DNA from: a virus
Taxonomy: Duplodnaviria > Caudoviricetes
DNA length: 55,420 bases
IMG/VR virus record: IMGVR_UViG_3300024254_000010
Span: 1 to 55,420 of that record
Direction: 5' to 3' (one strand)
In this document: positions 23,611 through 55,420 of the stretch, piece by piece
Layout of the letters: each line of letters starts with the position of its first letter
Position numbering within the stretch: the first letter of the stretch is position 1
Made by a program: the position numbers and the translations under genes
The notes under the pieces: model-generated
Told to the model about the DNA's origin: nothing
Databases searched by the model: none
The model's input: the letters and a program-made list of their open reading frames with translations, nothing else

Positions 23611-23617
23611 AAGCCCT

Positions 23618-24527: not shown

Positions 24528-24545
24528 GGTTGTGGTTTATGTGGA

Positions 24546-28388: not shown

Positions 28389-28389
28389 G

Positions 28390-30611: not shown

Positions 30612-31200
30612 CGAGGAAGATTTCCTGGTTAAATTGTTTGCCAAAGAACCGCCCGGTCGATTCCTGGACATTGGCGCGTACGACGGCATTCACATGAGCA
30701 ATACCCGCCGTTTGCTCGAACTGGGCTGGAGCGGTGTTCTGGTAGAGGCGCACTGGGGCAATTTCGAATCACTCTGCGAAAACTGTAAGAAATTCACTGA
30801 CCGCGTGACATTGGTTTGCGCGGCCCTCGCGCCCAAGGCCGAGCTGCGTCGGCTGTGGGTGGATCTGTACGAAGATCGGTCCTGGAGCACGACCATCAAC
30901 GATGACCTGAAGAATAGCGGTTCGGTCATGGACCCGAGCAAACTGCTGACCATGGTCAGTTGCATCACCATGGATGACCTGTGGCCGCTGGGTCCATACG
31001 ACCTGATTTCTATGGACGCTGAGTGGGAGGACTTCGCGATTATCAAGAGCCAACCAATGGAGGCATGGCGAAAGGCCAGTGTGATTTGTGTAGAGACCCG
31101 TTCGCCAGAGGAGAGGCCCAACGTAAAAGCGTTTCTGCGGCTCATGGGCTTCTTTGCCGTGCACGAAACTAAAGAAAACTTAATCGTCCAAAGGCGATGA
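30595..31200 (+). CDS. FkbM-family SAM methyltransferase
   Basis: YSQNDEE...FLDIGAYDG...SNT...WSGVLVE...ISMDAE. Confidence 0.85.
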   Translation: MYSQNDEEDFLVKLFAKEPPGRFLDIGAYDGIHMSNTRRLLELGWSGVLVEAHWGNFESLCENCKKFTDRVTLVCAALAPKAELRRLWVDLYEDRSWSTTINDDLKNSGSVMDPSKLLTMVSCITMDDLWPLGPYDLISMDAEWEDFAIIKSQPMEAWRKASVICVETRSPEERPNVKAFLRLMGFFAVHETKENLIVQRR

Positions 31201-31760
31201 ACCGCATTCTTCAAATCAATCATCGGGAGGCGCTTGGCTTTTGGCTAAATGAAATGGGATTATTGTTCGAAGTGGCCGAGATTGGTTGCGCTCGCGGCAC
31301 CTTCTCGCGCACTGTTCTGTCCCAATGGCGAGGGTGCATTTACAACATGATCGATCCTTGGATGACCCAGGACATAGAGATTTACAAAGAGGCACAAGAA
31401 CGTCAGGAAGGTTATGATGCGTGGCACAAGGACTGTGTTCTTTTAGCTGAACAGGATCCGCGAGTCAGGATCATTAAAGATTTCTCAGTTCCGGCCAGTG
31501 CCAAGTTTCAGCCCTACCAGCTGGACATGGTGTACATTGACGGCAACCACTCTTATCCCGCTGTTATGGCCGACATGGATGCGTGGTGGCCTAAGATTCG
31601 CATCGGCGGCCTAATGGGTGGCCACGATTATGGGCATATCACCAAAGGCAAAGCCTGGATTGAGGTCGAGCCAGCCGTCAATCGCTGGGCCAAGGAACAC
31701 GAGAAAGTATTCTACGTCTGCCCTTGTTCCTCGTGGTTCATCGTGAAGCAGGCACCATGA
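31197..31760 (+). CDS. Class I SAM methyltransferase (Methyltransf_24-like)
   Basis: AEIGCARG...IDPW...DMVYIDGNHSY...GGLMGGHDY. Confidence 0.85.
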   Translation: MNRILQINHREALGFWLNEMGLLFEVAEIGCARGTFSRTVLSQWRGCIYNMIDPWMTQDIEIYKEAQERQEGYDAWHKDCVLLAEQDPRVRIIKDFSVPASAKFQPYQLDMVYIDGNHSYPAVMADMDAWWPKIRIGGLMGGHDYGHITKGKAWIEVEPAVNRWAKEHEKVFYVCPCSSWFIVKQAP

Positions 31761-32401
31761 TAGCGGTGTCGTCATTCCGCCCGTTGGACGATAATAAGGA
31801 AGTGGCCACTAACCAGATCCTGGCCATCGACTCATGGCGCTCGGTGTTTCAGGGCATATTCCTGTTCGGCGCGTTCGACTGGCGCTTGGCCTGCCCGCGC
31901 ACCACGTTCATCGAAGGGCCAGATTTCCCGCCGCTAAGCCTGCTCTATCTTGTGGCTTCCCAATCCGAGGAACCTGCCGCCATCCTAAACGCCGACATCG
32001 TGGTTGGCCGCAACTTAGTTGAAGTGGCCGATAAGGCATTTCGCATGGGCGCTTACGCACTCACCAGTCGCCGTTATGAGTACGATCCGGCCAAGCCAAA
32101 CTTTGAGGCTGCTAAGGTCGTGGACCTGGGTGCTGACTTCTTCTGCGCTCACCCATGGATCTGGGCCAAGGCATGGCGAGCTGTGCCCGAGCAGTATAGG
32201 TTCGGAAACGGCGGTTGGGATAATTGGCTCTTGGGCTACCTCGGGGTAACTCTGCGACGGGCCTTTGCTGATATTACACCCTCTCGCTGCATCTTTCATC
32301 CACGCCACGTAGAGCGTAAACGTGTCGCCATGGAACAGCCGATCATGGACCGATACAACACGAGCAGCCTCGGATTCCCTCGGGCGTTGACCTTGACCTG
32401 A
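31757..32401 (+). CDS. GT-A-like protein
   Basis: ILNADI, GADFF, WDNW, IFHPRH. Confidence 0.5.
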   Translation: MIAVSSFRPLDDNKEVATNQILAIDSWRSVFQGIFLFGAFDWRLACPRTTFIEGPDFPPLSLLYLVASQSEEPAAILNADIVVGRNLVEVADKAFRMGAYALTSRRYEYDPAKPNFEAAKVVDLGADFFCAHPWIWAKAWRAVPEQYRFGNGGWDNWLLGYLGVTLRRAFADITPSRCIFHPRHVERKRVAMEQPIMDRYNTSSLGFPRALTLT

Positions 32402-38315: not shown

Positions 38316-38561
38316 ATGGCCTGTGATCCAAATCAGTTGCTGGAGGATGCCAAGTGCTTCCAGTGCAAGTATGGCTCTCTTGGTCCACTCTATGATGCTG
38401 TAGAGATTGTCCTTCTGTGCGGCATCCGGGATGGGATGAATCTTCCTTGTGACCCGGACTTCTTAGCCAACGAAGCCAGATGCATTGTTAATTGTATCCC
38501 ATCCGGGGCTATGCAAGCCGTTAAGATTAGCATTCTGTGCGACATCTTGGGCATGACCTAG
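38316..38561 (+). CDS. Cys-repeat small virion-like protein (2 units)
   Basis: CDPNQLLEDAKC...LLC and CDPDFLANEARC...ILC. Confidence 0.7.
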   Translation: MACDPNQLLEDAKCFQCKYGSLGPLYDAVEIVLLCGIRDGMNLPCDPDFLANEARCIVNCIPSGAMQAVKISILCDILGMT

Positions 38562-38568
38562 GACCAGT

Positions 38569-38772
38569 ATGGCTTGCGAACCAAACCAGCTACTGGAAGA
38601 TGCAAAGTGCGTCATGTGGTGCGTGCCAAGGGGATCCAATGGAGCCATCATCGTATCGTTGTGGTGCCAGATTTTGGACAATGGTTTCCCACCTGGGATG
38701 ACGTTCTACATCCTTACTGAGCTGGGAGAGATCATAGACGCGGAGAATGCGGACAAATTACGCCAAGAGTGA
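38569..38772 (+). CDS. Cys-repeat small virion-like protein (1 unit plus ILTELGE tail)
   Basis: Paralogous N-terminus CEPNQLLEDAKC. Confidence 0.7.
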   Translation: MACEPNQLLEDAKCVMWCVPRGSNGAIIVSLWCQILDNGFPPGMTFYILTELGEIIDAENADKLRQE

Positions 38773-38784
38773 AAGGAATAAGCG

Positions 38785-39045
38785 ATGGCAGACAAAAAAA
38801 TCACACAATTGCCCGCTGCTGCCGGTATTACCGCCGACGACCTCTTCGCCATCGTCGATGCTCCGAGTGGCGCTGCAACGACCCAGAAGGCCACAGCCGC
38901 TCAATTGCGCAAGTTCATCGGATGCCAACTTTATCAAGGTCGCGCCCCGGCCGCGCCCGATGATCCCACGTTGCCCGCCCTGGATTATCCAGTTGGTGGC
39001 GGGAACCTTAGCCAGTGGGACGTGCCAACGCTTAGCTGGAAATGA
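38785..39045 (+). CDS. Short fibre-adaptor-like protein
   Basis: MADKKITQLP N-terminus, as seen in phage fibre proteins. Confidence 0.6.
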   Translation: MADKKITQLPAAAGITADDLFAIVDAPSGAATTQKATAAQLRKFIGCQLYQGRAPAAPDDPTLPALDYPVGGGNLSQWDVPTLSWK

Positions 39046-39046
39046 G

Positions 39047-39580
39047 TTAGATATGTTTCCACTTTTTACGAAGAACAATGCAAGAGACGTTTGCCTGAGC
39101 GATTCCAAATCGGTCAGCAACCGACTGCTGAGATTCTCCGCGTGCGCAGCAGTTCCTTATTGCTACGACATCGTCGCGTGTAAGTTTGCTCGAATGGTGA
39201 TTTTCTCCTCTCACGCAGAGATAGTCCTCTTTCCGCTTTTTGATTTTAGCTTTTGGGGCTCGGCCAAGAAGAACTCGGTAATAATGAAGTCTGTTTTGGG
39301 AATGTGTGCACCACTCAAGATTTTCGAGCTGATTGTTCGCTTTGTTGCCGTCCAAATGATTTACCTCGTCGGTTGGCAATGGAGGCTGGACAAAAGTCTT
39401 GAGGACGACCCTGTGAACGCTCTCGTAAACCACAACCCCGTGTTTTCTGAGCCCGATACGCATGTATCCAGATTTCTGGCGATACGGTTTAAGAATCTTT
39501 CCGTTCCGGCGAATTCTGCCAAGATTGCTGACTTCGTAAAATCCCTCAAATCCAGGAACTGGTTTCCATTCCTCATTCAT
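39047..39580 (-). CDS. NUMOD4-HNH homing endonuclease with C-terminal HTH
   Basis: EEWKPVPGFEGFYEVSNLGRIR; VHRVV...VNHLDGNKANNQLENLEW. Confidence 0.9.
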   Translation of the reverse strand: MNEEWKPVPGFEGFYEVSNLGRIRRNGKILKPYRQKSGYMRIGLRKHGVVVYESVHRVVLKTFVQPPLPTDEVNHLDGNKANNQLENLEWCTHSQNRLHYYRVLLGRAPKAKIKKRKEDYLCVRGENHHSSKLTRDDVVAIRNCCARGESQQSVADRFGIAQANVSCIVLRKKWKHI

Positions 39581-39640
39581 CGGACTGAGTGTCTTAAACC
39601 CAAGAACAATAATCAACAGGAATGTTGGGTATAATGACTA

Positions 39641-40036
39641 ATGGCCACATGCACCACCAACGAGCTAATGCAAGCGGCGGCCTCGATGAGCGGATTGAGT
39701 CCTGGCCAACTCGAACTAATCAAGACCGTCCTGCTCTGCCGAATCCTGCACATACAAAACCCCATGGCTAGTTGCAATGTTCAGGATCTACTCGATGACT
39801 CCAGTTGTTTCGCGTGCCTATTCCCGTTCCAACTCTCGGTCATCCAAACACAGTTGCTTTGCGAAATACTTCATGCGGGCGGGGGCAGTGGCAACAGTTG
39901 CTTGATGTGCGGCGATGCCGATCCGGTAGCCGCGCCAAATTGCGAATGCGCCCTGTACTACAACCGCACCACGTCCAGCTTCTGGTACTGGGACGACAAC
40001 CTGAGTCTTTGGGCAATGTTGATCGGTGGAATATGA
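39641..40036 (+). CDS. Cys-repeat small virion-like protein (2 units)
   Basis: CTTNELM...LLCRI; CNVQDLLDDSSCFAC...LLCEI; YYNRTTSSFWYW. Confidence 0.7.
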   Translation: MATCTTNELMQAAASMSGLSPGQLELIKTVLLCRILHIQNPMASCNVQDLLDDSSCFACLFPFQLSVIQTQLLCEILHAGGGSGNSCLMCGDADPVAAPNCECALYYNRTTSSFWYWDDNLSLWAMLIGGI

Positions 40037-43000
40037 CCATCCCTGATAAATATGCCTTTTGGCGTTGGCCGGCTAAGATTCGGTCGCTTACAACTGAACT
40101 TGAACACCTCAAGGAGGAACATGCCCGGGTTTTGGCTGGCCAATCCAAGCTCCTGGAATGGGTCAAGGTCACGCACCGGCTGACATCCCCAGCCCAAGGC
40201 ATCAGGGCACTATTGCAGAATGGAAAGCGATTGGTGCCGTTACTGGTACTTTTATTAGGCATGCAGGCGACACTGGCCCAGCCCGCGCCACCGATTTTGC
40301 GCTCTCCGCTCACGACCAATTCCCATTTCGGCCCTACCCCGACTGAAGGGCAGGTTCCGATCTGGAACGCCGCAGCCAAGAAATGGTCCAACAATGTGCC
40401 CGCAGGCGGTTCTTCCACTCCGCACACCTGGACCAATGACAATGGCACTCTCAAACCAATCGCGTTCCCGACCAATATCCTGCTGCGGGTCAACGTGCCT
40501 GACGACGGCATTGGAACGAACTTCTATTTCGACTCGCGGGTCTACCGGACCAACGCGGCGAGCAAACTCTTCACGATCCGAAACGGCGGCAGCAATGCGC
40601 TGACGATTGGTCCGAACGGCCAACTGATGGCCGGGAGAGGTAATGGAACTCCATTTCCTGGTGCGGTTCTCTACGGGATATTTGACACAGCCCTGGGCGA
40701 AACCAATCAGCAGGAGATTTTCACCCTCAGTGGCAATAGCGCGGTGGGCTACAGCGGGGCTTCGGACCTGATCATCGACACCAATTATGGGGCTCTGATT
40801 CTGTTTGCCAACAAGGAGGGGGGCGTGAAATTTACCAGATTCTCGGTTCAGGCCGGGGCTGGCGACAATCCACAGAACTTCAACAGCTTCACAATGCAGG
40901 CGTTGGTGGACGGGGCGACCTACATGCAGATGGACCCCAATTTTAGCCTGCTTACCCCGACCAATTATCTCTTCAGCAGCAGCATTCGAATCACCAACAC
41001 CGACACGTTGCTTTCCCTGCAAAACAGTAATTTCCCAGTGCTCGAAGTGGACGGTGTTGGGGACCTACGATTGATTAAGAAGATCCCGTACCTATGGCCA
41101 AGTGCCCAGGGAGCAGCCGGAACCACTCTCACCAATAATGGCTCGGGCGCTCTGGGCTGGTGGCCTATCTCGGCTGGCTCGGGTCCACCCGGACTCACGA
41201 CTAATGCCAACCAATTCCTTGGCGTTCCGTTGTCCATTAAGGACGGAGCGTTCCTCACCAACATCAACGTTCAATCGAGCCTCGAAGTCTCCAACGGCTG
41301 GATTTATGCCTCCGGTCCGGTCACCAATGGCACGCAGCTAAATCTGCCACACTTGACAGTTTCAAGGTCGGCCGTAATCAACGCACAAGGAGACGTGACC
41401 AATTCCAGCGCCGATTCCAACTGGAGCCTTTATCCGACCAATGTTTGGAATGATCGGCAATTCGGTTCCCAGAATCTCACCAACTGGTCGAATATCCCCA
41501 CGGGCGCGATGGCAAACGTCGTCGCGACTGATTATCTCACCAACTGGGCCAATGCAATCAGCAATCTGACCCAGACCAAACAGTTCGGGTCTGCCAATCT
41601 CACGAACTGGTCGAACATCCCGACTGGGGCTATGGCTAACGTCGTTTCCACGACGTTCCTGACCAATTGGGCTAATGCGATCAGCAACTTAGCGGAAACC
41701 AAACAGCTTGGCTCCGCTGTGCTAACCAATCTGGTCGGGACGGTGGCTAACAACGTTACAAACGTCGTCTCGCTAAGCACAACCAATGCGACGAGCAAGC
41801 CACTCACAAACAGTTACACAGCAGGCGTGCTGACGATCTTTGGGGTCGAGCAAGGCAGTGGCCAAGCGATCACGATGAACGCCTCGAATGTCGTGATCGC
41901 CAACGATTGGACACAGACGGCCAGTACTACAAATGTCGTTGGAGTGTCGAACTGGGTGAACTCGGTTTCCAACCTCGTACAGACCAAGCAAAATGGGAGC
42001 GCAGTCCTAACCAATCTAGTCAGCACCGTGGCTAATAACGTCACTAATGTGGTGAGTTTGAGCACCACAAATGCAACCTCCAAGCCGCTGACAAATGCAT
42101 ACGCTAACGGAGTTTTGACGCTGTTTGGAATCGAACAGGGGTCCGGCCTAGCCGTAACCATGAGTTCCAATATCGTGGTAGCCAATGACTGGGCGCAGAC
42201 GGCAAGCACGACGAATGTAGTGGGCGTGTCCAACTGGGTCAACTCTGTAAGCAATCTAGCTCAAACTAAACAGTTCGGGTCTCTCACATTGACCAATCTT
42301 TCTGGCACGGGGGCAATCACTAACCTATTCACGTCGTCTCTCTCCAACGCCACTATTAAACCACTGGTCGTTGGAGTCGGAACTGCGGCAGGAGCAACCA
42401 ATACCACTGGCGAGATTCGTGGGCTGGAAGCAGGCCCCAACATCACGCTTACTCCAAATGGAAGCAATTACGTAATCGCAAGCACTGGCGGTGGAACTGT
42501 GACATTCTCTGACCTTCTTTTTACCAACGAACCGTCTGGCCGAATTCATCCTGTTACGTGGACCAATCGACTGGAGATGCAACGGCCAATAACCATTGGA
42601 ACCAACCAGAATGATACGATCATAGGGGCGTCACTAAACACGAATGATTTCTTCGTTGCCTATAGGTCGATAACCAATGGCGAACAATATCTTCCCAGAT
42701 TTGAATTCGGAGCCTTCAGTAATGGCGCTATATCTTCAATAGTTGGTTACATCGACGACGGGTTTTCTGGCTTTACTCTGCACACCATGCTTGACGGAGG
42801 CGCTCCATTCGGAGGTGAAATCCGCATGCTGGCTGACGCAAGAAATATCGGTGGCATGGTGTTCGCAATCACGTCCACAAATGGATTTGTGCCGTTTTCA
42901 ATTATTGGAAGTGCCACTAAAATAAATAACGTCGGTTATGTATTCCCACCAGTTCAAGGCGCGGCCGGAACTGTGCTCACAAACAACGGATCTGGATCAT

Positions 43001-45246
43001 TGGGATGGTCGGCCCAACTGCAACCGTCCAGCACGACGCTAACGAATCTTTCTGGCACTGGAGCGATTACGAATCTGTTCAGCGCGACGCTTTCCAATGC
43101 GACGATTAAACCGCTCGTGGTCGGCATCGGCAACGCGGCCGGAGCGACGAATACGACCGGGGAAATCAGAGGGTTGGAGGCCGGAGCAAACATTACGCTT
43201 ACTCCGAACGGGAGCAATTATGTAATCGCTTCAACTGGATCTGGTGGGGTGGCTTTTTCGGATTTGGTTTGGACGAATGATACCGTCGCAATAAAGCCGA
43301 ACGCGTTCCCTACCAATATCATGTTGCGCATTGACGTACCGGATGACGGTGTTGGTACAAATTACTATTGGGATGCCAGAACCTACCGGGCCAATGCAGC
43401 CAGTAAGTTGTTTGCACTTTACAACGGCGGATCCAACGCGCTCACGGTTGGTCCCTTCGGCGGCGTTTTCATCGGCAGAAACAATGCCACCCCAGTTAAT
43501 CTCTATGCTTTCAATGCCATGCGTGACACAGCTATCGGTGAACCAAACTCGGCGTTCATCCAAGCCAAGGCATCGCAAAGCACGGTTGGCTATTTTGGAA
43601 CCACCCTGTTCGGGGTGAACACTAACTCCTCTGAACTTACGATGAGGACCTTCGACGGAGTTAATAAGCAATGCATCTTTGCTGTCACTGCGGATAATTT
43701 CACCAATTCCACCTTAAAGTTGACTGACAAAATTGGATCGAGTGAACGCGGCGTGTTTTTGTCTCCAGGCATTGGGCTAACCTACCCGACCAACTACATG
43801 TTCAACACTTGGTATGAACTCACAAATACCGATACCCTTCTTAGCTTGCAGAACTCAAACACTCCGGTTTTTGAAATTGATGGAATCGGTGATCTTAAAC
43901 TGTTGAAACGGGTCGCTTATTCCTGGCCAGTTGCACAGGGAGGCGCGAGCACCGTCCTAGCTAATGACGGGTCCGGTAACCTTAGTTGGTCTGGAGCATT
44001 CCAGCCAGGAAGCACAACCCTTACTAATCTGGCTGGCACCAAAGCTATCACCAATCTGTTCGCGCCTTCATTATCCAACGCCACGATTAAGCCGATTGTC
44101 TTTGGTGGAGTCGGAAACGCGGCCGGGATGACCAATACGACAGGACAGGTATATGGCCTTGAAGCGGGAGCTGGCACAACTCTAACACCAAACGGGAGCA
44201 ACATCGTCATCGCAACCACTGTGAGCGGCACTGGTGTTTCAACGAACGCCAATCAATTTGGAACCCAGGTCACGTTGACTCTCAAGGACGGCATATTCCT
44301 GACCAATATAATTGCCTTCCCAACCGGAAACGGGACAGCGCCAGCACTAACCGTAACCAACGTCCCTGGAATCGGCACGAACAGCTTTCAAGTGCTGAAC
44401 ACCAACGGCGTGCCTGTCATCTATGGTTTGACCAACAACGGAATTACCCTCGTGGCCAGCAACGTCAATTTCCTAGGGCCACAGACCAATACTTCGTCGT
44501 TAAATGTCCTGGGCGGCGTGACCAACTGGGCGGCAGTGGAAACCCGGGGTAACGCCACTAATGCCGGATGGCTAGCCATTGCAGGCGGATTTACCAACAT
44601 CGGAGGGTCATTGCTGACCGGGAGCGTCACCAACGGAGGACGGGTGGACACAGCCGGTGGAGCGACCAACTGGATTGGGGCTGAAACCAAGGGCACGCTC
44701 TACGCCAGCAGCAATTTGCTGGTGAAAGCAGGCCAAGGCACCAGCAACGCCTGGGTAGGTGGGAGAATTTTTATTGATGCATCAACGGCCACAACAAATC
44801 ATAGCGGGACGGCAGCTTACACGAATCTGTTCACCTACACCGTTCCCGGTAATACCCTCACCAACACTGGAGATGAATTGGAGTTTTATTTGTCAGGCCA
44901 GTTCAAGTTTGCAACCACTACGACCAACGGATTCAAAGCTATCTATGGCACAGCAACCATATTCGATACTGGTCTTATTACAGCCTCGAATTGCCCGTGG
45001 GCGGTGACCATACGAATGACTCGTACAGGCAATTCTTCTCAGCGAGTAGAGAGCAAGGTCCTATGGAACGTCAGCGGTGCTGTAAACTCCTCCGGTAACG
45101 GACCCCTTTCATGTTATGCAACGAACATGCCATTCGCTCAAAACAATGGCATCACCAACATTTTCGTATTCCAAGGAGAATCACGCATTGCGGCAGTCAT
45201 CACCAACGATTACCGGGCCATTACTTACACTCCTGGGCTTAACTGA
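40033..45246 (+). CDS. Very large TN-rich fibre/adhesin-like repeat protein with an internal signal-peptide-like segment
   Basis: ATGA-coupled start at 40033; KRLVPLLVLLLGMQATLA|Q; WPSAQGAAGTTLTNNGSGALGW-type fibre repeats. Confidence 0.75.
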   Translation: MTIPDKYAFWRWPAKIRSLTTELEHLKEEHARVLAGQSKLLEWVKVTHRLTSPAQGIRALLQNGKRLVPLLVLLLGMQATLAQPAPPILRSPLTTNSHFGPTPTEGQVPIWNAAAKKWSNNVPAGGSSTPHTWTNDNGTLKPIAFPTNILLRVNVPDDGIGTNFYFDSRVYRTNAASKLFTIRNGGSNALTIGPNGQLMAGRGNGTPFPGAVLYGIFDTALGETNQQEIFTLSGNSAVGYSGASDLIIDTNYGALILFANKEGGVKFTRFSVQAGAGDNPQNFNSFTMQALVDGATYMQMDPNFSLLTPTNYLFSSSIRITNTDTLLSLQNSNFPVLEVDGVGDLRLIKKIPYLWPSAQGAAGTTLTNNGSGALGWWPISAGSGPPGLTTNANQFLGVPLSIKDGAFLTNINVQSSLEVSNGWIYASGPVTNGTQLNLPHLTVSRSAVINAQGDVTNSSADSNWSLYPTNVWNDRQFGSQNLTNWSNIPTGAMANVVATDYLTNWANAISNLTQTKQFGSANLTNWSNIPTGAMANVVSTTFLTNWANAISNLAETKQLGSAVLTNLVGTVANNVTNVVSLSTTNATSKPLTNSYTAGVLTIFGVEQGSGQAITMNASNVVIANDWTQTASTTNVVGVSNWVNSVSNLVQTKQNGSAVLTNLVSTVANNVTNVVSLSTTNATSKPLTNAYANGVLTLFGIEQGSGLAVTMSSNIVVANDWAQTASTTNVVGVSNWVNSVSNLAQTKQFGSLTLTNLSGTGAITNLFTSSLSNATIKPLVVGVGTAAGATNTTGEIRGLEAGPNITLTPNGSNYVIASTGGGTVTFSDLLFTNEPSGRIHPVTWTNRLEMQRPITIGTNQNDTIIGASLNTNDFFVAYRSITNGEQYLPRFEFGAFSNGAISSIVGYIDDGFSGFTLHTMLDGGAPFGGEIRMLADARNIGGMVFAITSTNGFVPFSIIGSATKINNVGYVFPPVQGAAGTVLTNNGSGSLGWSAQLQPSSTTLTNLSGTGAITNLFSATLSNATIKPLVVGIGNAAGATNTTGEIRGLEAGANITLTPNGSNYVIASTGSGGVAFSDLVWTNDTVAIKPNAFPTNIMLRIDVPDDGVGTNYYWDARTYRANAASKLFALYNGGSNALTVGPFGGVFIGRNNATPVNLYAFNAMRDTAIGEPNSAFIQAKASQSTVGYFGTTLFGVNTNSSELTMRTFDGVNKQCIFAVTADNFTNSTLKLTDKIGSSERGVFLSPGIGLTYPTNYMFNTWYELTNTDTLLSLQNSNTPVFEIDGIGDLKLLKRVAYSWPVAQGGASTVLANDGSGNLSWSGAFQPGSTTLTNLAGTKAITNLFAPSLSNATIKPIVFGGVGNAAGMTNTTGQVYGLEAGAGTTLTPNGSNIVIATTVSGTGVSTNANQFGTQVTLTLKDGIFLTNIIAFPTGNGTAPALTVTNVPGIGTNSFQVLNTNGVPVIYGLTNNGITLVASNVNFLGPQTNTSSLNVLGGVTNWAAVETRGNATNAGWLAIAGGFTNIGGSLLTGSVTNGGRVDTAGGATNWIGAETKGTLYASSNLLVKAGQGTSNAWVGGRIFIDASTATTNHSGTAAYTNLFTYTVPGNTLTNTGDELEFYLSGQFKFATTTTNGFKAIYGTATIFDTGLITASNCPWAVTIRMTRTGNSSQRVESKVLWNVSGAVNSSGNGPLSCYATNMPFAQNNGITNIFVFQGESRIAAVITNDYRAITYTPGLN

Positions 45247-45253
45247 GACATCT

Positions 45254-47662
45254 ATGAAACGATTAGTGCTCGTCCTTTTTCTGTTCCTGATGGCCATTGG
45301 GGCTTTCGCCGCCAATCCGCCCTACACGGCATTCATTGGCACAAATGGAATTCTCATAAGGTCCAATGTGGGCATCGGTAAAATCCTCGTGGACGGCGGC
45401 GGCATAACGAACGGGTCCAGCCCAGTCTTCGTCACGACCAATCTGTTCGTGGTGAACAATACTTTCAGCAGCAACATCTTCGTTACCAATCTGACCGTCC
45501 AGAGCATAACGGTGCTCCAGACCCTGTTTGCGATCAGCAATATCTTCGTGAGCAACATTTTCGTGACGAACATCGTCGTCAACAACATCAACGTGAATAG
45601 TAACCTGTTCGTGACGAATGCCTTCTTCTCTGGAATCACGACCAATAGTGGCACGATTTCCAGTCGCGTGCTGATCCTTCCCACCACGGCGGGACTGGGC
45701 TGGTTTAACGGCACCAACCAGTGGTACAGCACCAACCTCACAGCGAATGTGGCCGTTCTCCTGACCAACCTCATGGAAGGCGCTGACTATTATCTTCAGG
45801 TCAGCAATCCAGCCTCATTTGCTGTCACGTTTACGTCGATAGGGGCTGACAGTTGGATTGAGCATCCTTACGTGGCTGGAACAGCGGTCACCAACGGAAT
45901 CACGCTATTCAAGTTCCAGCGGTGGGGAACCAAGACCAATGCCTTCGAAGTCAAACGAAGCCTGACCCTAACCAATGACGACGGAAGCATTACATTTGTG
46001 ACCAATCAGGATACGCTCGTTATCCGCGCTGCGCCCGGTGGGATAACCTTTGGGGACTTGGTTTGGACCAACGACAACAATGACATCACCGTCATTTCTA
46101 CGATAACCACGAACATTCACTTCTCGCTCGACGGCAGCATGCACATCGGGCCAGAGATAACCAATGGCGTTTTCATCGACCTCTCCAATCCTTCGATTAA
46201 GTCGATAAATGTGGATCGGCCCAACGCCAACTCCACGCTTCAAGCTGACGACAACGGATTTGCCATGGCGGGAGCTGTAAATGCTGCTGAAGGCGGATCC
46301 ACCCGATTCGACGTGTTTGGAATAGGCGACACGGGAGGCGGCCTTTCGAGTGTGGAATTGGCCATGCAAATTGCTAACAGGTACGTCGTTCTCCTTGATC
46401 CAACCTACTCAGTCGGCCCCACATCGTACATATTCAACACCGCCTACCGAGTCACGAATACCGACACGATTCTGTCCTTGCAGAACTCCAACGCGCCAAT
46501 GTTCGAAGTGAACGGTATAGGCGACCTAAAGCTCCTGAAGCGAGTTGCCTACTCCTGGCCCAGCGCCCAGGGCGCTGCTCAGACTGTTCTGACCAACGAC
46601 GGCGCAGGAAATTTGGGATGGGGCGCTGTGATCGGAACGGGTGGCGGCGATTCGGTGTGGACGAATGATGGCACTAGAATTCGACCATCTGCTCTTAACT
46701 CTGGAAGATACATCTACAATGTTGGTGGCTATAATACTGGAATTGGCGTTACGAATGCCAACAACGGCTATACCCCCACGGCCCAGAACGCATTTACTTC
46801 ACTGCATAACGTTCAAGATGGCGACAATCAAGGGAATCAGTTCCGAATCGTTGTCCAACAGGACACCAATGCAATTCAGAACGCCAGAATAATCGGTGCA
46901 GCAAACTATTTTGATGGAGATTCTTACACTGAGCTGGATATTGAGGCACGAGGAACCAATGGAACTGTCGGGCTACAGTTATTTGCGGACTACCTTTTCG
47001 GTACGTTTGTGACATGGGAAACCACCAACGGCACTTTTAATTGGCAGTTCCCCAATGCCCAAGGATCGGCTGGCACAGTTTTAACCAATGACGGTAGCGG
47101 TAATCTAGGCTGGGGCACTGTCGCCGCCGCAAATCCGCTGTCGGGCACCACCAACATACTCAATCTGTCGGTGCAAGCGGCCAAGCTGCCGGCCACCAAT
47201 TATCCGGTTATTGATGCTGGGTGGCAGGCTTGGGAAACCGTTTACGCGGAGACCAATGCTGAGGGTGCTCGCATCGCCACGAGTGCCACATGGCAGTTTG
47301 TGGTTCCTCCCGACTATGCAACTAACACGCTAAAGCTATTGATTAACTATTCGCTTTCATCCACCAATGGACCCAACACGAGCAACGTTGTCTTTGGAGT
47401 TTCGGTCCTGCCGATTAGGAGCGGTACTACCAATAATGTTCACACCAACTTCTTCGGTGCGCTTGTTAGAGGATCAAACGATTGGATCGCCAAATATGAC
47501 GGCACCAATATCGTGACTAATCTTGTCATTGATTTGGGCGTTAATTCGCTCCTCATGCCCCGAGACGTGGGCCTTATAAAACTGCAACGACTTCCAACCG
47601 AAGATACCTACGGCGGGGCGGTCGCAGTGCATGGATTGCAGTTGGAATACACACGCCCATGA
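45254..47662 (+). CDS. Secreted TN-rich fibre-like protein
   Basis: Signal MKRLVLVLFLFLMAIGAFA|A; shares modules with the 40033 protein. Confidence 0.75.
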   Translation: MKRLVLVLFLFLMAIGAFAANPPYTAFIGTNGILIRSNVGIGKILVDGGGITNGSSPVFVTTNLFVVNNTFSSNIFVTNLTVQSITVLQTLFAISNIFVSNIFVTNIVVNNINVNSNLFVTNAFFSGITTNSGTISSRVLILPTTAGLGWFNGTNQWYSTNLTANVAVLLTNLMEGADYYLQVSNPASFAVTFTSIGADSWIEHPYVAGTAVTNGITLFKFQRWGTKTNAFEVKRSLTLTNDDGSITFVTNQDTLVIRAAPGGITFGDLVWTNDNNDITVISTITTNIHFSLDGSMHIGPEITNGVFIDLSNPSIKSINVDRPNANSTLQADDNGFAMAGAVNAAEGGSTRFDVFGIGDTGGGLSSVELAMQIANRYVVLLDPTYSVGPTSYIFNTAYRVTNTDTILSLQNSNAPMFEVNGIGDLKLLKRVAYSWPSAQGAAQTVLTNDGAGNLGWGAVIGTGGGDSVWTNDGTRIRPSALNSGRYIYNVGGYNTGIGVTNANNGYTPTAQNAFTSLHNVQDGDNQGNQFRIVVQQDTNAIQNARIIGAANYFDGDSYTELDIEARGTNGTVGLQLFADYLFGTFVTWETTNGTFNWQFPNAQGSAGTVLTNDGSGNLGWGTVAAANPLSGTTNILNLSVQAAKLPATNYPVIDAGWQAWETVYAETNAEGARIATSATWQFVVPPDYATNTLKLLINYSLSSTNGPNTSNVVFGVSVLPIRSGTTNNVHTNFFGALVRGSNDWIAKYDGTNIVTNLVIDLGVNSLLMPRDVGLIKLQRLPTEDTYGGAVAVHGLQLEYTRP

Positions 47663-48507
47663 ATAAATGTCTAATCTTGCTGATATTGGCATTGTCAATG
47701 GTACCCGGTCCGGGTGCAGTCCACACCATCATAGGGCAATCCGACAATAAAACACCTATTGGAACCTCTGGGAATAGGGCGACTGAACTATTCGCTCAGA
47801 TGACTAACTCCAGTTCCATAACCATTGCCTGTTGGGTCAAGTACGACTGGACCGACGCCGGAGTAAATGGCCAACTGGGAGGAGGAGCAAAACAGGGTTT
47901 GGTTGGCAAAGGTCGATTCGAACAATCTGGGGCTGACGGAAATCAACAGTTCGGATTATCCTCGGTCAGCGAAAAGATTGGATTCAGCTTCGCTAGTCCC
48001 AACGGCACCTATCACATCTGGCGAACAACTGGCGACTCAGTGCAGACAAATACCTGGATGCATGTGGCTTGCAGTTATACCTACAGTAACGCCAATTCTC
48101 TCGCCTTTTACATCAATGGCAAAGCTACCTCGGGCAGCTGGGGAACAGGAACTGGAAACGCCGTTGGGATAACGAACGCCACCACTTTTCACACATTCGT
48201 CTACCAGCAGAATGGAGGGTCGTCTTTTTTTGGTGGGGCCATGTCGGATTTAGCCTTCTGGACTAATGCATTGTCGGCTGGAGACGTCGGCAAATTGGCC
48301 TTCAGCAAAGTGAAGTACATGCCGTTTCAGGTCCAGCCGGAATCGCTGATGTTCTATTGGCCAATGGATACGACACCCATTGGTCCAGTCATTACCGGAG
48401 GTAGCCCAGCCAATCTAGACTGCGACAGGAACAAGTACCATTTCGATCTGGATGCAGGCGGGCTGTTCTCTGGAGAGCGCACCCTTAGCTACCAACCCAA
48501 CGAATAG
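47659..48507 (+). CDS. Secreted LamG-like lectin-domain protein
   Basis: Signal MNKCLILLILALSMV; ITIACWVK...TWMHVACSY...FYING...SDLAFWTNALS. Confidence 0.78.
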   Translation: MNKCLILLILALSMVPGPGAVHTIIGQSDNKTPIGTSGNRATELFAQMTNSSSITIACWVKYDWTDAGVNGQLGGGAKQGLVGKGRFEQSGADGNQQFGLSSVSEKIGFSFASPNGTYHIWRTTGDSVQTNTWMHVACSYTYSNANSLAFYINGKATSGSWGTGTGNAVGITNATTFHTFVYQQNGGSSFFGGAMSDLAFWTNALSAGDVGKLAFSKVKYMPFQVQPESLMFYWPMDTTPIGPVITGGSPANLDCDRNKYHFDLDAGGLFSGERTLSYQPNE

Positions 48508-49932
48508 ATGAAGACATTCCTAGCTCTGGCTTTAGCACTGATCGCATCTGTGTGTCATGGAGCGACGATTACCGCAGTCGATACAAGCTGGGCTGCTGTC
48601 TCGAACGCGGTCAGGATTGCTGTCTCCGGGGACACGGTGGTTGTGCCAGCTGGATTATCGAGTTGGAGCACAGAAGTCATAATTACTGGCAAAAGGCTGA
48701 CTGTTTTAGGGGCCGGGATTGGGAAGACGATCATTCTTGATAACGGAAATGGCGCTTTCCAGGTGTTTTGTTCTTTGGCCAATCAGGTGCGAATCTCTGG
48801 TTTTGAGTTTCGGTCGGGTGCAAATCATCATTCCTCGGGACTGATCGACATCGACGGGCCATCCAACGTGGCAGGCGATCAGGTGGGATATCGCATTGAT
48901 CGTTGCAAGCTAGTCATCGCTGACGGAGATACACGCGGGATTGTGACTGTGAACACCTACGGCCTCATTGATTTCAATTACTTCGACGTAAGTTATATCG
49001 GCCAATCAATTCAAAGCATTTCTCCGTTCGGTAGCATTGATGGGTCAGACGGCGGATTTACCCCTTGGCGCAGACCACTAGTCCTAGGGTCCACAAACTG
49101 CACCTTCATCGAAAACAACACCTTCGCCTATACGGTTGGAATCGCCAATGTAGAGGACTGCATTGATGGCTACGGCGGCGCTCGACTGACGATCCGGTCC
49201 AATTATTTCCTCAACTCGCACCCTGGATTTCATGGCACGGATAGCGGTAACCGAAGGTCCGCACACAGCTTCGAGGTTTACTCCAATAACTACGTCAACA
49301 ACTCGGCCTTCACCTATCGCACCCTAACAGTGCGGGGTGGAACTGGAGTTGTATTCTGGAACAGCTATGGCGGAACCCAGCCAGTAGGCGGGGTTACCCT
49401 GATGTATTACCGGGCATCCACGACCCTGGACAGTAGCACTTGGCAAAGATGCGACGGGACCGAATGGGAACTTGGTTCGATAAATCTGAGTGCCGGCGCG
49501 AGTCGGGTCTGTTCAACGACAGGCAACGTCCGTTTCTGTGGTTACGACAAGGAGACGATTGGAACCGAAAATCTGGTGTGCGTTGGAAGCACTTTCAGCC
49601 GTCCTTTTGATGGTCCTGGAATATCTGGAAGGCCCGGGCGGGATCAACCAGGAGTCACTACAGGGCAGTTTGAAACTCCGATTTATGTTTGGAATAACGG
49701 CACGCACACCGCAGGAACGTATGATGGGGGAACACCAACGGTAGGGAACCGGGGCATCGACTTCTGGATTATCGCTGGCAAACATTACAGTAACAATTTC
49801 GCACGGCCGGGCTACATCCCACTTGGCAAACATCCATTGACGCTTACCGATCCACAGGTATCGGGACCGCCGCCGTCTGGATGGCAAAAGTTTCTGTTCG
49901 GCGCAGGGGCGAACCCGGTTATCTTACCATAA
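48508..49932 (+). CDS. Secreted pectin-lyase-like beta-helix protein (possible depolymerase)
   Basis: Signal MKTFLALALALIASVCHG|A; GDTVVVPAG, GAGIGKTII, FIENNTF, EVYSNNY. Confidence 0.72.
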   Translation: MKTFLALALALIASVCHGATITAVDTSWAAVSNAVRIAVSGDTVVVPAGLSSWSTEVIITGKRLTVLGAGIGKTIILDNGNGAFQVFCSLANQVRISGFEFRSGANHHSSGLIDIDGPSNVAGDQVGYRIDRCKLVIADGDTRGIVTVNTYGLIDFNYFDVSYIGQSIQSISPFGSIDGSDGGFTPWRRPLVLGSTNCTFIENNTFAYTVGIANVEDCIDGYGGARLTIRSNYFLNSHPGFHGTDSGNRRSAHSFEVYSNNYVNNSAFTYRTLTVRGGTGVVFWNSYGGTQPVGGVTLMYYRASTTLDSSTWQRCDGTEWELGSINLSAGASRVCSTTGNVRFCGYDKETIGTENLVCVGSTFSRPFDGPGISGRPGRDQPGVTTGQFETPIYVWNNGTHTAGTYDGGTPTVGNRGIDFWIIAGKHYSNNFARPGYIPLGKHPLTLTDPQVSGPPPSGWQKFLFGAGANPVILP

Positions 49933-50300
49933 TGAGTGACGTATCAATGCGAGAATACCTGGAAACATTGATCGCCGCTCACCGCCGCGAGATTGATGTG
50001 AAAAGTGCAGCCACCGAATCGGCCATCCTGTTGGCCAGGGAAGAAGTGGCGCGGCGACTGGGTGAACTCAACCAGTTGCGCAGTGAAGTTATCTCTGACC
50101 GTGAACAATTTGTGAGCAAACTACAATTCGAACCAATGATGCAGGAGCGTGACGCCTGGAGAGGCGACATGACTGACAAACTAACCTCCATAAACGAGCG
50201 CATAACCAAAATCGAGACCCGGGGCAGCACCTGGACTCTGGCCATTGGCCTATTCTTCGTCGTGCTCCAAATCGCCTTGATGTTTCTATTGCGCAAATAG
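49932..50300 (+). CDS. Coiled-coil protein with C-terminal TM (holin-like candidate)
   Basis: Heptad pattern; WTLAIGLFFVVLQIALMFLL. Confidence 0.5.
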   Translation: MSDVSMREYLETLIAAHRREIDVKSAATESAILLAREEVARRLGELNQLRSEVISDREQFVSKLQFEPMMQERDAWRGDMTDKLTSINERITKIETRGSTWTLAIGLFFVVLQIALMFLLRK

Positions 50301-50326
50301 GGCCAAACGCGCTACCAAGCCAATCT

Positions 50327-51019
50327 ATGAAAACAAACATGCGGCTAACGGCCATGGTCGCCATGGCGTTCACGTTAATTCAGATCACGCTTCAATGCGC
50401 GGAGGATCCGAATCAGCTGCCATCGGTTGACTGGGCGCAAGTCGCCCAGGTCCAACCAAAACCCTGGATGATGACCACGCCCAAACCGGGCACTGCGGCC
50501 AAACCGGCTGCACCAGCCGCCCCGCCAAAAGAGAAGCCTGTTTCCTGGTGGACCGACTTCTCCATCAGTCCGTACGTCGCATGGCGAAATGTGGATTTTA
50601 CCGGCAAACCCATCTTCGGCGCGGGGATAGGATTGGGCTACCAGATCAACCGCGCAGTGGGAGTTCATCTCCTAAACACCCTCTACGATGAACCTGACGT
50701 GCTTACCTACGACAGACGCGGCAATGCATTTGTCCAAAAGCACGGCTGGACCTCAGGGATGGGCATTGATGAGACGGAGGTTATGGCGCGGGCTGACATG
50801 AATGGGCTTGTCGGCAAAGGCAATGAGCGATTTGTTCCGTTTCTTCTTGGTTCCTATACTCATTCGTGGGAACATGACGATGAAGCCATTGGAGCCGGGG
50901 CCGGATTTGACATTCGTTTGTCCAAAAACTTCTCCTTCGAGATGAGTTACCGGGTTCGTGTATTTTTCAACGGTGGAGATGAAGGCTGTGGAATGGCTGG
51001 ACTACACTTTCAGTGGTAA
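50327..51019 (+). CDS. Outer-membrane beta-barrel protein (OmpA/Lom-like fold)
   Basis: Signal peptide; amphipathic strands GAGIGLGYQI, FVPFLLG, GAGAGFDIRL; terminal aromatic GLHFQW. Confidence 0.72.
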   Translation: MKTNMRLTAMVAMAFTLIQITLQCAEDPNQLPSVDWAQVAQVQPKPWMMTTPKPGTAAKPAAPAAPPKEKPVSWWTDFSISPYVAWRNVDFTGKPIFGAGIGLGYQINRAVGVHLLNTLYDEPDVLTYDRRGNAFVQKHGWTSGMGIDETEVMARADMNGLVGKGNERFVPFLLGSYTHSWEHDDEAIGAGAGFDIRLSKNFSFEMSYRVRVFFNGGDEGCGMAGLHFQW

Positions 51020-53484: not shown

Positions 53485-55314
53485 ATGCCAATGCCAAATG
53501 GCAAATCAGACCTCAGACTCGTGGATGGTCAATTGTCGTTCGCTGGAGGAATTGACTCGGGCAAAATCTCGACGATAGCCACTGATTCCTACCCTGAAGG
53601 ACTCAAGCGTAACCAGTTGGCGTGGCTTACCAACGGGACCTGTCGTGGTGGTGGCATTACTCAGCGAACTGGCTGGAAGCCCTTGGTCCAAAGTTTTCCA
53701 TGGCCTGGAATATTTCAGGGCGGATACATGTACGAGCCGCCATTCGCCAATCCTTATCTGGTCCTTTCAATCGGCGGGCATCTGTATATCGTAAACGTAG
53801 ACTCCGATAACTCAGTGCGCGATATTTCGGCTGACTTCGGTCAGTTCAATCCGCCTAACGAAGTGCAGGCGTTCTTTGTGCAAGCCGAAGAATTTCTCGT
53901 GGTTCAAGGCGGGGACTTTGTGACGAAGCCTCTCATTTGGGACGGAGTGACACTGAGGCGCAGCAATGGAATCACGGGCAATCTGGCCGGACCTAATATC
54001 AACGAGATACCTCCTGCTGGCCCGATGGACTATTACATGGGCCGGCTCTGGTACGCCTTTGGCCGGGTCTACGCAGCCGGCGACATCGTGCAGGGGCTAA
54101 GCGGGACGGCAGCCTACAATTACCGGGACGCCGTGCTTAAAGTAACGGAATCCCCGTTATCGTTAGCGGGGGATGGCTTCATTGTCCCCGCGCAATCGGG
54201 CAATATCAGGGGTTTGAGCCATACGGCTGAACTGGATACGGCCTTGGGCCAGGGCCGACTTTACATCGGGACTCGGCGCGACGTGTTCCGCTGCAACGTT
54301 CCCGTTACCAGAAGCGATTGGATCGGAGCTGGTGCGACGTTGGCCGGCCGAGGGCCGGACGCTAATCCGCTGCAAACCGTTGCCCAAATCAACTTTGGAT
54401 TCATCAATGACCGCAGTGTGGTGCGCGTCAATGGTGATCTGTTCTACCAAGCCATGGACGGGGTGCGTTCACTGGCTCTGGCCACCCGCTTCTTCCAGCA
54501 ATGGGGCAACGTCTCCATCAGCCGCAATGAGAACAGGGTCTTACGCTTTAACGACCGGAAGTTATTACGCTTCGCCAGTGGCATTGAATTCGATAATCGC
54601 CTCCTGCAAACCTGCCTCCCAATTCAAACTCCGGTCGGAGTCGCCCACAAGGGACTCATGCCGCTGGATTTTGATCTGATCACGAGCCTGGAAGAGAAAT
54701 ATCCACCCGCCTGGGAAGGGATGATTGAGGCCCTTGATGTCATGCAGTTGTTCGAAGGCGACTTCGGCGGATTACAGCGCGGATTTGCCACCATCGTCAG
54801 CAAACAGACTGGCTCCATTGACCTGTGGGAGATTACCACTCAGGACCGATTCGATCAGCAGATCGATAACAACGGCAACCGGGTAACGTGGTATCTCGAA
54901 AGCCCATCTTACAATTGGGGTGACGCTTTCGCTCTCAAGCAACTCGATGGGATGGAGCTATGGGTTGATAAGCTGTTCGGCACGGTGGAGTTCGTGGTAG
55001 ACTACCGGGTGGACCAAAACCCGTGTTGGGTATTCTGGCATGCTTGGAAGGAATGCAGCGCGAAGGATTGCCGGGAAGATACGGAGCCGGTGTTTTGCCC
55101 AGAGTATCCGATCCAGCCTTACTGCGAATCATTCAGAGCCACGATGGTTTTACCAAAGCCGCCCGTGCGCTGTGAGAGCGGGAACAACCATCCAACCAAC
55201 CAAGGGTTCCAGTTTCAGATAAGGGTCACAATTCGCGGTTGGTGCCGCGTCCGTGGGCTGATTGTTTACGCGCTCCCGAGAGAGCAGGGTCCTTACGAGA
55301 GGATGCTATGTTAG
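53485..55314 (+). CDS. Tail nozzle / packaged-DNA stabilisation protein (tail tubular B / P22 gp10-like)
   Basis: SFAGGIDS N-terminus, RGGGITQRTG, propeller-like strands (YMGRLWY, VNGDLFY), FQFQIRV near the C-terminus. Confidence 0.6.
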   Translation: MPMPNGKSDLRLVDGQLSFAGGIDSGKISTIATDSYPEGLKRNQLAWLTNGTCRGGGITQRTGWKPLVQSFPWPGIFQGGYMYEPPFANPYLVLSIGGHLYIVNVDSDNSVRDISADFGQFNPPNEVQAFFVQAEEFLVVQGGDFVTKPLIWDGVTLRRSNGITGNLAGPNINEIPPAGPMDYYMGRLWYAFGRVYAAGDIVQGLSGTAAYNYRDAVLKVTESPLSLAGDGFIVPAQSGNIRGLSHTAELDTALGQGRLYIGTRRDVFRCNVPVTRSDWIGAGATLAGRGPDANPLQTVAQINFGFINDRSVVRVNGDLFYQAMDGVRSLALATRFFQQWGNVSISRNENRVLRFNDRKLLRFASGIEFDNRLLQTCLPIQTPVGVAHKGLMPLDFDLITSLEEKYPPAWEGMIEALDVMQLFEGDFGGLQRGFATIVSKQTGSIDLWEITTQDRFDQQIDNNGNRVTWYLESPSYNWGDAFALKQLDGMELWVDKLFGTVEFVVDYRVDQNPCWVFWHAWKECSAKDCREDTEPVFCPEYPIQPYCESFRATMVLPKPPVRCESGNNHPTNQGFQFQIRVTIRGWCRVRGLIVYALPREQGPYERMLC

Positions 55315-55420
55315 TAACCATACTTCTTCCTGTAATGTGCCTTGCAAAGCTTGAGTGCGTACTGCGGTTTTCCACACACCTTACAAATCAATTTGCCGCA
55401 CTTCCCGCATGGGATCTTTC
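55272..55420 (+). repeat. Terminal repeat copy 2, with a 69-nt deletion relative to 1-218
   Basis: 55272-55387 = 1-116; 55388-55420 = 186-218. Confidence 0.92.

Follow-up and report, generated by a model that had tools for sequence, protein, structure and literature searches.

The 55,420-bp stretch of DNA analysed here (the window) is the whole of the IMG/VR tailed-phage record IMGVR_UViG_3300024254_000010, which is rated 100% complete. The ends of the record overlap by about 117 bases (1-117 = 55271-55387), suggesting that it is circular or terminally redundant. Behind the capsid genes, in the late operon, seven genes lie head to tail on the + strand: a gene for a 131-amino-acid (aa) protein, followed by genes that we name A to F. 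This block, in which two large fibre-like proteins (A and B) and three of their neighbours carry leaders resembling signal peptides, is the subject of the present analysis. An initial annotation, made from the DNA alone, had read it as a possible module of exported fibres accompanied by an outer-membrane barrel. The features of the block are as follows (an arrow marks a predicted cleavage site).

39641-40036 (+): gene for the 131-aa protein, signal-less and cysteine-rich, directly upstream of A
40033-45246 (+): A, 1737 aa; ATGA overlap with the 131-aa gene (translational coupling)
40033-40224 (+): A residues 1-64, N-terminal extension that is conserved among relatives and putatively cytoplasmic
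40225-40278 (+): A residues 65-82, with KR, a hydrophobic core and x-x-A↓Q; putative internal signal peptide or signal anchor
40279-45246 (+): predicted mature part of A, about 1655 aa, with a conserved N-terminus (QPAPPILRSPLTTNSH...), three globular modules and a distal part rich in threonine-asparagine (TN)
45254-47662 (+): B, 802 aa; 7-base gap after A
45254-45310 (+): predicted signal peptide of B, residues 1-19, with MKR, a hydrophobic core and AFA↓A
45311-47662 (+): predicted mature part of B, with a conserved N-terminus (ANPPY-AF-GTNG), a variable middle and a conserved C-terminal beta-sandwich (about 658-802)
47659-48507 (+): C, 282 aa, predicted exported LamG/concanavalin-like protein; 4-base overlap with B
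48508-49932 (+): D, 474 aa, predicted exported right-handed beta-helix-like protein, candidate glycanase; no gap after C
49932-50300 (+): E, 122 aa, signal-less coiled coil with a C-terminal membrane segment; 1-base overlap with D
50327-51019 (+): F, 230 aa, with a signal peptide, a proline-rich linker and a predicted 8-stranded outer-membrane beta-barrel; 26-base gap after E

The start of E (MSDV...) was set by comparison with relatives. Promoter-like and terminator-like sites are fewer in the block than in shuffled sequence, so that no gene is marked as a separate unit; for this reason we rejected the idea that F is a separately transcribed, moron-like unit. The 131-aa protein, for which there is no match in Pfam, PHROG or NCBIfam, is 79-98% identical in six related loci and is encoded each time directly upstream of A. 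The gene coupled to fibre A is also the last of three small cysteine-rich paralogues (38316-38561, 38569-38772 and 39641-40036, all +), which share the repeated motif C-PNQLLEDAKC...LLC-IL and have no family match.

Leaders were called with a home-made rule that requires a basic n-region, an uncharged hydrophobic 10-mer with a mean Kyte-Doolittle hydropathy >=1.9, together with small residues at positions -3 and -1. Five of the 50 open reading frames of the window pass it, namely B, C, D, F and 24546-25340 (-), so that four of the five lie in the fibre block. Within A the same pattern is found at residues 65-82. The initial annotation had listed four consecutive large genes with signal peptides. 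Those of B, C and D are at the N-terminus; the segment given for A (KRLVPLLVLLLGMQATLA↓Q) exists as described, but its position is internal, at residues 65-82.

A word-indexed search gave 31 homologues of B, all on contigs of 57 kb or less, and 25 of these pass the leader rule. A survey of homologues had been proposed as a check on the leaders, and it bears them out. Among the six failures, the start of P0008 is cut, P0015 has a visible leader with Met at -3, P0018 has a different N-terminus, P0027 and P0028 are A-type proteins and P0030 is a fragment. There was no signal-less member with the conserved mature N-terminus among the 31 homologues. In a 23-member alignment, residues 4-19 of the B leader show 38.9% pairwise identity compared with 67.4% for residues 20-47, and they are hydrophobic in all 23 members (mean hydropathy 1.64-2.95). 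The leaders of C, D and F likewise vary among relatives with their pattern kept; those of C are kept in five relatives with different sequences. Thus leaders are conserved in kind and not in sequence across about 30 homologues, and in every relative such segments head four to six neighbouring genes of unrelated folds. Hydrophobicity is kept as the sequence drifts, which is how signal peptides evolve.

The situation in A is different. Residues 1-64 (DKYAFWRWPAKIR...LLEWVKVTHRL), which look like a coiled coil, are near-invariant in seven phage loci and in the more distant P0027 and P0028. In the segment that follows (residues 65-82) the hydrophobic stretch varies and x-x-A↓QPAPP is invariant across loci. 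An in-frame start codon just before the hydrophobic segment is present in only two of the seven loci. An internal start giving A an ordinary leader was therefore rejected, and the long form of A appears to be the conserved product. In P0066 the A-type mature N-terminus (QPNPPILRQPLTTNSH) comes directly after a classical 18-residue leader, without the 64-residue extension. This protein thus has a short leader in place of the extension and segment of A, which suggests that the internal segment of A is in the leader position; the genomic context of P0066 found no match in the viral collection. From these comparisons, A carries a predicted extended leader of 82 residues or a signal anchor.

Additionally, F is predicted to be an outer-membrane barrel (see below), which must be exported, so leaders of this style appear to work in this host. 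Taken together, the data argue strongly that B, C, D and F are exported, and export of A is likely. The claim that the fibres are exported is therefore upheld by the leaders kept across homologues and by the P0066 variant. The fibre-like proteins and their lectin-like, candidate glycanase and outer-membrane neighbours very probably fold outside the cytoplasm. In the window as a whole, the predicted exported proteins comprise 4076 of 15,695 residues, or 26% of the phage coding capacity.

The relationship of A and B to tail fibres was approached through their repeats and their relatives. A holds three copies, and B two, of a module of about 250 residues that ends WP-AQGAAGT-LTN-GSG-LGW, which includes one of the fibre-type motifs previously noticed in the two largest proteins; A also contains repeated LTNLSGTGAITN... 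stretches. The PHROG family phrog_4636 'tail spike' (down to 1e-22) and two 'virion structural' families match four of 23 B-family members, and six of 14 in a second set. The members that match phrog_4636 share both leader and mature N-terminus with B. P0020, one member of the B family, has matches of 25-37% identity to annotated tail fibres or spikes of cultured or deposited phages (81 records), none of which covers 80% of the query; among the phages are Bacillus SPO1-like, Pelagibacter, Roseobacter, cyanobacterial and E. coli phages.

When 1.84 billion representatives were searched with a profile, there were 1128 matches at E<=1e-3. The leader rule is passed by 66 of the 136 new proteins among the matches listed, and by 47 of the 92 of those that start with Met and have at least 400 aa. 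Peptidase_S74, the tail-fibre chaperone domain, was found in nine of 35 new profile matches scanned with Pfam. Bacterial chromosomes encode some leader-bearing relatives of the module, in a 5.5-Mb Cytophagales genome and on two contigs (712 kb and 234 kb). As judged from these matches, the module family includes ordinary tail fibres as well as leader-bearing fibres of both phages and bacteria.

Structural comparisons added little. The AlphaFold2 (AF2) monomer model of whole B is poor, with a mean predicted local distance difference test (pLDDT) score of 42.8. Its ESM Atlas neighbours are viral clusters with scores of up to 0.87, which we treat as a lead only. The C-terminal beta-sandwich (about 658-802) is similar to both carbohydrate-binding modules and phage tail-tip domains (Z 6-7), a likeness that may reflect a common fold only. 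The conserved mature N-termini, the swapped distal parts (below) and the PHROG tail-spike modules in some members suggest that A and B are kin of tail fibres. Upstream of the block, an 86-aa signal-less protein (38785-39045, +) opens with KITQLP...DDLFAIVD, and the same motif (KISQLP...) starts the mature part of the leader-bearing fibres P0154 and P0161; this protein may represent an N-terminal or adaptor domain of a fibre, encoded by a gene of its own.

The fibre block is present in eight related contigs. Their core genes are conserved (major capsid protein, 94-99%; large terminase, TerL, 84-97%; 609-aa tail protein, 79-98%), whereas A is conserved only over its first 420-820 residues and the middle of B is exchanged between relatives. 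D is replaced by unrelated leader-bearing proteins in L006/L016 and in L010/L011, and the block of L016 consists of A, a D-type protein and B only. Such a pattern, in which the virion core is conserved and the distal part of A, the middle of B and D are swapped, is typical of host-range genes. F is absent from L006 and L016, which keep A and B, and from the fragment L007, which keeps at least B; we therefore rejected F as a general docking site for the fibres.

The fibres are also marked by TN dipeptides. The initial annotation had counted about 23 by hand in the first 520 or so mature residues of A, and residues 83-602 contain exactly 23. The whole of A has 71 compared with 22.7 expected (z 11.3), and B has 34 compared with 9.5 expected (z 9.1); none of 2000 shuffles reached the observed count in either protein. 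The reverse dipeptide, NT, is depleted in both. The signal-less proteins are not TN-rich (0.17 per 100 aa, 42 proteins pooled), as had been stated for the structural ones among them. A comparison of secreted with non-secreted proteins had been proposed as a check; A and B have 4.3 TN per 100 aa, and the six other exported proteins pooled have only 0.85. D and F each have 0-1 TN and are exported by the same criteria, so that TN marks the fibres and not export.

Eight different hexamers spell TN and no retroelement gene was seen in the window. A cause at the DNA level was rejected on these grounds, and the use of eight hexamers suggests that TN is a feature of the protein. The excess is present in all near, phage-borne relatives (observed/expected about 3-5) and, among P0047-P0182, is confined to these; in distant bacterial Peptidase_S74 fibre proteins TN is at the level of composition. 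The residue before TN is usually hydrophobic, a position that fits a turn or ladder position in a beta-rich shaft.

Maturation in the periplasm by glycosylation and disulfide bonds, which had been proposed, did not find support. The many N-x-S/T sequons are there (46 in A, z 2.0; 11 in B, z -1.1) but are not in excess over composition, and the Bacteroidota O-glycosylation motif D[ST][AILVMT] is not enriched (A, 7 compared with 4.4 expected; B, 3 compared with 2.9). There are three cysteines in the 1737 residues of A and none in B. With sequons at the level of composition and almost no cysteine, neither modification is supported.

The neighbours of the fibres fall into several classes. C matches LamG (PF13385, 2.6e-14, 54.1 bits; cut-off 27.6), and LamG domains are also present in the L006 and L007 versions of C. 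D has no Pfam match; its ESM Atlas neighbours are beta-helix clusters that carry PF13229 (scores 0.94-0.98), and its matches to NCBIfam beta_helix_1 and NosD are weak and far below cut-off. E is absent from L006, L007 and L016. In L011 the same cassette contains a holin-like gene (Phage_holin_5_2, 8.3e-6, below cut-off), and the block of relatives also holds a leader-bearing FN3 protein (fn3, 1.8e-7).

The initial annotation had placed a signal-bearing beta-barrel after the fibres, and this was borne out for F. The Pfam match of F to OMP_b-brl (2.3e-5, 25.1 bits) is below the gathering cut-off of 28.7, and that of a homologue with 49% identity in phage G001 (31.8 bits) is above it. The AF2 model shows the leader, a disordered proline-rich linker of about 50 residues and eight long strands, with pLDDT 72-83 in the C-terminal half. 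All 16 Foldseek matches at E<=1e-3 are barrels, with OmpA, Ail, NspA, OmpX and OmpW at 3e-5 to 1e-3. The protein ends ...LHFQW, with the aromatic last residue expected of such barrels. On this model, F is an 8-stranded outer-membrane beta-barrel of the OmpA/OmpX/Ail type. Homologues of F were found only in the present phage set.

Much of the same exported set recurs in G001, a complete 40,764-bp siphovirus-like phage whose core genes (with PHROG matches for TerL, portal, protease, major head protein and tape measure) are unrelated to those of the window phage. Its fibre P0029 (1313 aa; L014, 10001-13942) has a classical leader and is 54% identical to the distal 770 residues of A, compared with 70-77% for the other A proteins, and its mature N-terminus differs from that of A. 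The P0029 gene lies between portal and prohead protease, not at the tail tip. It is ATGA-coupled to the gene for a 139-aa signal-less protein (L014, 9585-10004), which matches the N-termini of PHROG tail fibres (phrog_8469, 9e-14); the arrangement parallels that of the 131-aa gene before A. Together, the 139-aa protein and P0029 look like one fibre in two pieces, a cytoplasmic anchor and an exported shaft. The only other fibre-like protein of G001 (645 aa, after the tape measure) is also leader-bearing. G001 has further homologues of window proteins, among them a 264-aa exported protein (63% identity), an immunoglobulin (Ig)-like protein (46%) and the F homologue, and, beside a holin-like gene, it has a gene for a coiled-coil protein with the architecture of E.

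Our preferred interpretation, to which we assign a probability of about one in two, is that A and B are the long receptor-binding fibres of the phage, made as Sec pre-proteins and docking on the virion. Late in infection they would be threaded through SecYEG, and signal peptidase I would cut B after residue 19 and A after residue 82. They would fold and trimerise in the periplasm, beside the exported lectin C and the candidate beta-helix glycanase D. The 64-residue extension of A would act on the cytoplasmic side before cleavage, in timing, in tethering or in registering the three chains. The fibres would meet the cytoplasmically built head-tail particle only once holin lesions or lysis merge the compartments, and would dock on it through their conserved mature N-termini, with E and F forming a lysis/envelope cassette interleaved with the fibre genes.

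Two fates had been proposed in the initial annotation, docking on the virion at lysis and remodelling of the infected cell surface by the fibres as adhesins. On indirect evidence we favour the virion, because of the tail-fibre kinship, the lineage-specific anchors with shared distal parts and the coupling to small signal-less partners, because neither phage has another long fibre gene, and because there is a precedent. In phi18:3 (NC_021794), a cultured Cellulophaga podovirus of the Pachyviridae, the neighbouring gp085, gp086 and gp087 (547, 785 and 559 aa) are leader-bearing, each leader ending before Gln. They are annotated as virion structural, structural and tail protein 'based on experimental MS/MS proteomics analysis' (tandem mass spectrometry, MS/MS). 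Eight other MS/MS-annotated virion proteins of this phage have no leader.

Several observations count against this interpretation. A and B of the window have no match in Pfam, PHROG, NCBIfam or PDB sequences. The leader calls rest on a simple rule and on conservation. The signal-less 322-aa He_PIG (Ig-like) protein varies between relatives (57-92% identity), as does the signal-less 249-aa LamG protein, which has no match in L006/L007, and these two may be what the virion itself binds with. The beta-helix of D is not preceded by a docking domain, and D looks like a free enzyme. We know of no mechanism or example of post-lysis fibre attachment among tailed phages. With regard to the precedent, gp085-087 were rejected as homologues since they have no detectable similarity to proteins of the window or its relatives (blastp, E<=1e-3), and MS/MS of purified particles can pick up co-purifying envelope material. 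Two published systems discussed below, the Bdellovibrio surface fibres and the proteins of Porphyromonas gingivalis phages, also point away from the virion.

The alternative that survives best is that A, B, C and D are exported but are not virion parts and act on the envelope of the infected cell, which we regard as possible, if somewhat doubtful. As adhesive fibres and glycan-active proteins they could hide or remove receptors and thereby keep progeny from being caught on debris; other possible roles are a loosening of the capsule for release and attachment of the infected cell to new hosts. In this case the signal-less Ig-like and LamG proteins would be those by which the virion binds its host, and the variation of these 322-aa and 249-aa proteins between relatives is consistent with this. 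So is the architecture of the fibres, which is that of the surface-located mosaic adhesive trimer (MAT) fibres of Bdellovibrio (PMC10769870). The distant WP-AQG...LGW relatives with leaders and Peptidase_S74 (nine of the 35 scanned), some on bacterial chromosomes, also suggest a cell-surface role. Holin-like genes and a barrel gene lie among the exported genes, D is without a docking domain, the G001 fibre gene lies away from the tail tip, and phage proteins with Gln after the cleavage site have been read in this way (PMC10367356). On the other hand, no route across the outer membrane is encoded, F being only an 8-stranded barrel that is missing in L006, L007 and L016. The two phage lineages share distal parts and differ in mature N-termini, which fits phage-specific and not host-specific anchors. 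About 18% of a lytic-looking genome would serve non-virion proteins made late, neither phage would be left with a long fibre gene, and the leader-bearing proteins of phi18:3 are recorded in virions.

A bolder extension of the docking model, which we think improbable, is that the particles finish their assembly outside the cytoplasm. All long host-recognition fibres would be exported through Sec, the trimer of A would at first be tethered to the membrane by its 64-residue domain, and the fibres would snap onto signal-less tail adaptors only when the holin opens. TN, which is enriched 3-fold in this phage-host system and not in distant fibre relatives, would be a code for modification or folding specific to the host envelope.

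That A is an uncleaved type II membrane protein, in which the 64-residue cytoplasmic domain keeps completed particles attached by their tails to the inner membrane, with the fibre body in the periplasm until release at lysis, is very unlikely. The extension is near-invariant in all nine long forms (the seven loci, P0027 and P0028), it is in frame with the rest of A in every case and no internal start is conserved, and A is translationally coupled to a conserved signal-less 131-aa protein. Nevertheless, the cleavage-type -3/-1 site A↓QPAPP is invariant, P0066 does without the extension, and a membrane helix pulled out at lysis would have no precedent. Equally hard to accept is that the hydrophobic N-termini do not serve export and that the proteins assemble in the cytoplasm, the segment being a trimerisation or membrane-active element or being removed by a phage protease: leader predictors falsely call some phage capsid proteins (PMC10367356) and AF2 draws the segment simply as a helix, but the same kind of segment heads F, which must be exported, has an n/h/c layout with small -1/-3 residues, evolves as leaders do, heads several neighbouring genes of unrelated folds in every relative and is lacking from no B homologue with the conserved mature N-terminus.

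Comparison with G001 pointed to a second group of putatively exported and membrane proteins at 22597-25340 on the - strand, which also includes a 94-aa membrane protein. Its other members are listed below.

24546-25340 (-): 264-aa putative exported protein; passes the leader rule and is the counterpart of the G001 protein with 63% identity
23618-24124 (-): 168-aa putative exported Ig-like (FN3/PKD-type) protein; leader ends TFG↓Q; PKD 1.9e-4, below cut-off
23153-23326 (-): 57-aa holin-like protein with two membrane segments, read by eye; no family match
22797-23156 (-): 119-aa protein with a twin-arginine-like leader, read by eye; fails the Sec leader rule; no family match

This cluster may be a lysis cassette; no endolysin was recognised anywhere in the genome in family scans of the window proteins.

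Known-family matches in the rest of the phage are few (Pfam, PHROG): the large terminase (phrog_2, 2e-10), an ERF recombinase, a PD-(D/E)XK nuclease, an AAA_5 ATPase, a radical-SAM/SPASM protein, two methyltransferases, the He_PIG and LamG domains and two HNH endonucleases. There are no tRNA genes in the 55,420-bp phage, and no integrase was seen among the family matches. Among GenBank phages, TerL has a single match, at 21% identity, and neither B nor the portal has any. The phage-encoded radical-SAM/SPASM protein is at 9343-10329 (+). At 28312-32401 (+), directly upstream of the portal gene, are FkbM-type and Methyltransf_24 methyltransferases, with three further genes without assignment around them; the methyltransferases might modify DNA, glycan or protein. 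One HNH endonuclease gene (HNH_3, 1.9e-8; 43-747, -) separates the 609-aa tail gene from the 322-aa Ig-like gene; in L003 and L004 these two genes are direct neighbours. The second, of homing type (NUMOD4 and HNH_3; 39047-39616, -), is inserted between the 86-aa and 131-aa genes, which are adjacent in L003.

In textbook tailed phages every part of the virion is built in the cytoplasm. Should passage through the periplasm be routine for receptor-binding fibres, particle assembly would include a late step that crosses compartments and fibre folding could depend on factors of the host envelope. Recombinant fibres for phage engineering or diagnostics may then need periplasmic expression, and host-range prediction would have to take leaders into account. 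A full-text literature search found no paper on Sec signals on tailed-phage fibres or virion proteins, as judged by titles and abstract openings. The window contributes the predicted 82-residue extended leader with its conserved, putatively cytoplasmic domain and natural short-leader variant, a predicted exported gene set common to two phage lineages that are not related to each other, TN as a signature instead of known glycosylation motifs, and the commitment of about a quarter of the coding capacity of a phage to predicted exported proteins.

The predicted cleavage sites also bear on the host. By eye, Gln is at +1 in three of seven window proteins (A, the 264-aa protein and the Ig-like protein) and in five of seven in G001; B, C, D and F do not expose Gln. 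A Gln at +1 is reported for a mean of 71% in Bacteroidetes species, compared with less than 20% in most other groups (PMC5837995). A host in the Bacteroidota or a neighbouring group is plausible from the sequence, and a scan of 185,579 species genomes with the B-family and F alignments gave no match. Leader proteins that follow this Q-rule have been described in phages of P. gingivalis, where they are of unassigned function and are read by the authors as possible modifiers of the host outer membrane, not as fibres (PMC10367356).

Among known systems, the exported phage fibres proposed here can be compared on both sides of the cell envelope. The tail fibres and spikes of podoviruses (T7 gp17, P22 gp9) have no signal peptide and attach in the cytoplasm; they share with A and B a conserved N-terminal part, exchangeable distal parts and genes in a late operon. 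The MAT fibres of Bdellovibrio bacteriovorus are described as having a signal peptide, a conserved beta-rich N-domain of about 130 residues, a trimeric tail-fibre-like shaft and swappable tips, and as bacterium-encoded, exported and located on the cell surface, not on a virion (PMC10769870). The architecture (leader, conserved N-domain, variable fibre) is thus shared with A and B, and it is the location that differs. Additionally, the window fibres lack Peptidase_S74, unlike MAT fibres, and Bdello_MAT_N (NCBIfam NF053851) does not match A or B at E<=0.01.

F resembles lambda Lom in that both are small, phage-encoded, leader-bearing barrels beside fibre genes, and Ail, OmpX and OmpA are the top structural matches of F. 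The likeness is structural only, as the Pfam matches of F contain no Ail/Lom profile and consist of OMP_b-brl alone, below cut-off. Unlike Lom, F has a proline-rich linker of about 50 residues, and it does not appear to be a lysogeny gene since no integrase was seen. The extended signal peptide region (ESPR) gives very large autotransporter and two-partner adhesins their extended signal peptides. A is similar in having an unusually long predicted leader (82 residues) with a conserved N-terminal extension on the largest exported protein (1737 aa). However, there is no sequence likeness and no Pfam ESPR match, and the extension of A, of 64 residues, is coiled-coil-like.

Finally, the window phage is like phi18:3 in encoding large leader-bearing proteins as neighbours, which in phi18:3 are annotated as virion or tail proteins from MS/MS. 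In contrast with A and B, TN is not clearly enriched in gp085, gp086 and gp087 (3 compared with 4.4 expected, 11 with 5.9 and 6 with 6.5). Unlike A, these proteins have no long N-terminal extension, and the record is silent on leader cleavage. As a cultured system, phi18:3 is one in which the passage of fibres through the periplasm would be directly testable.

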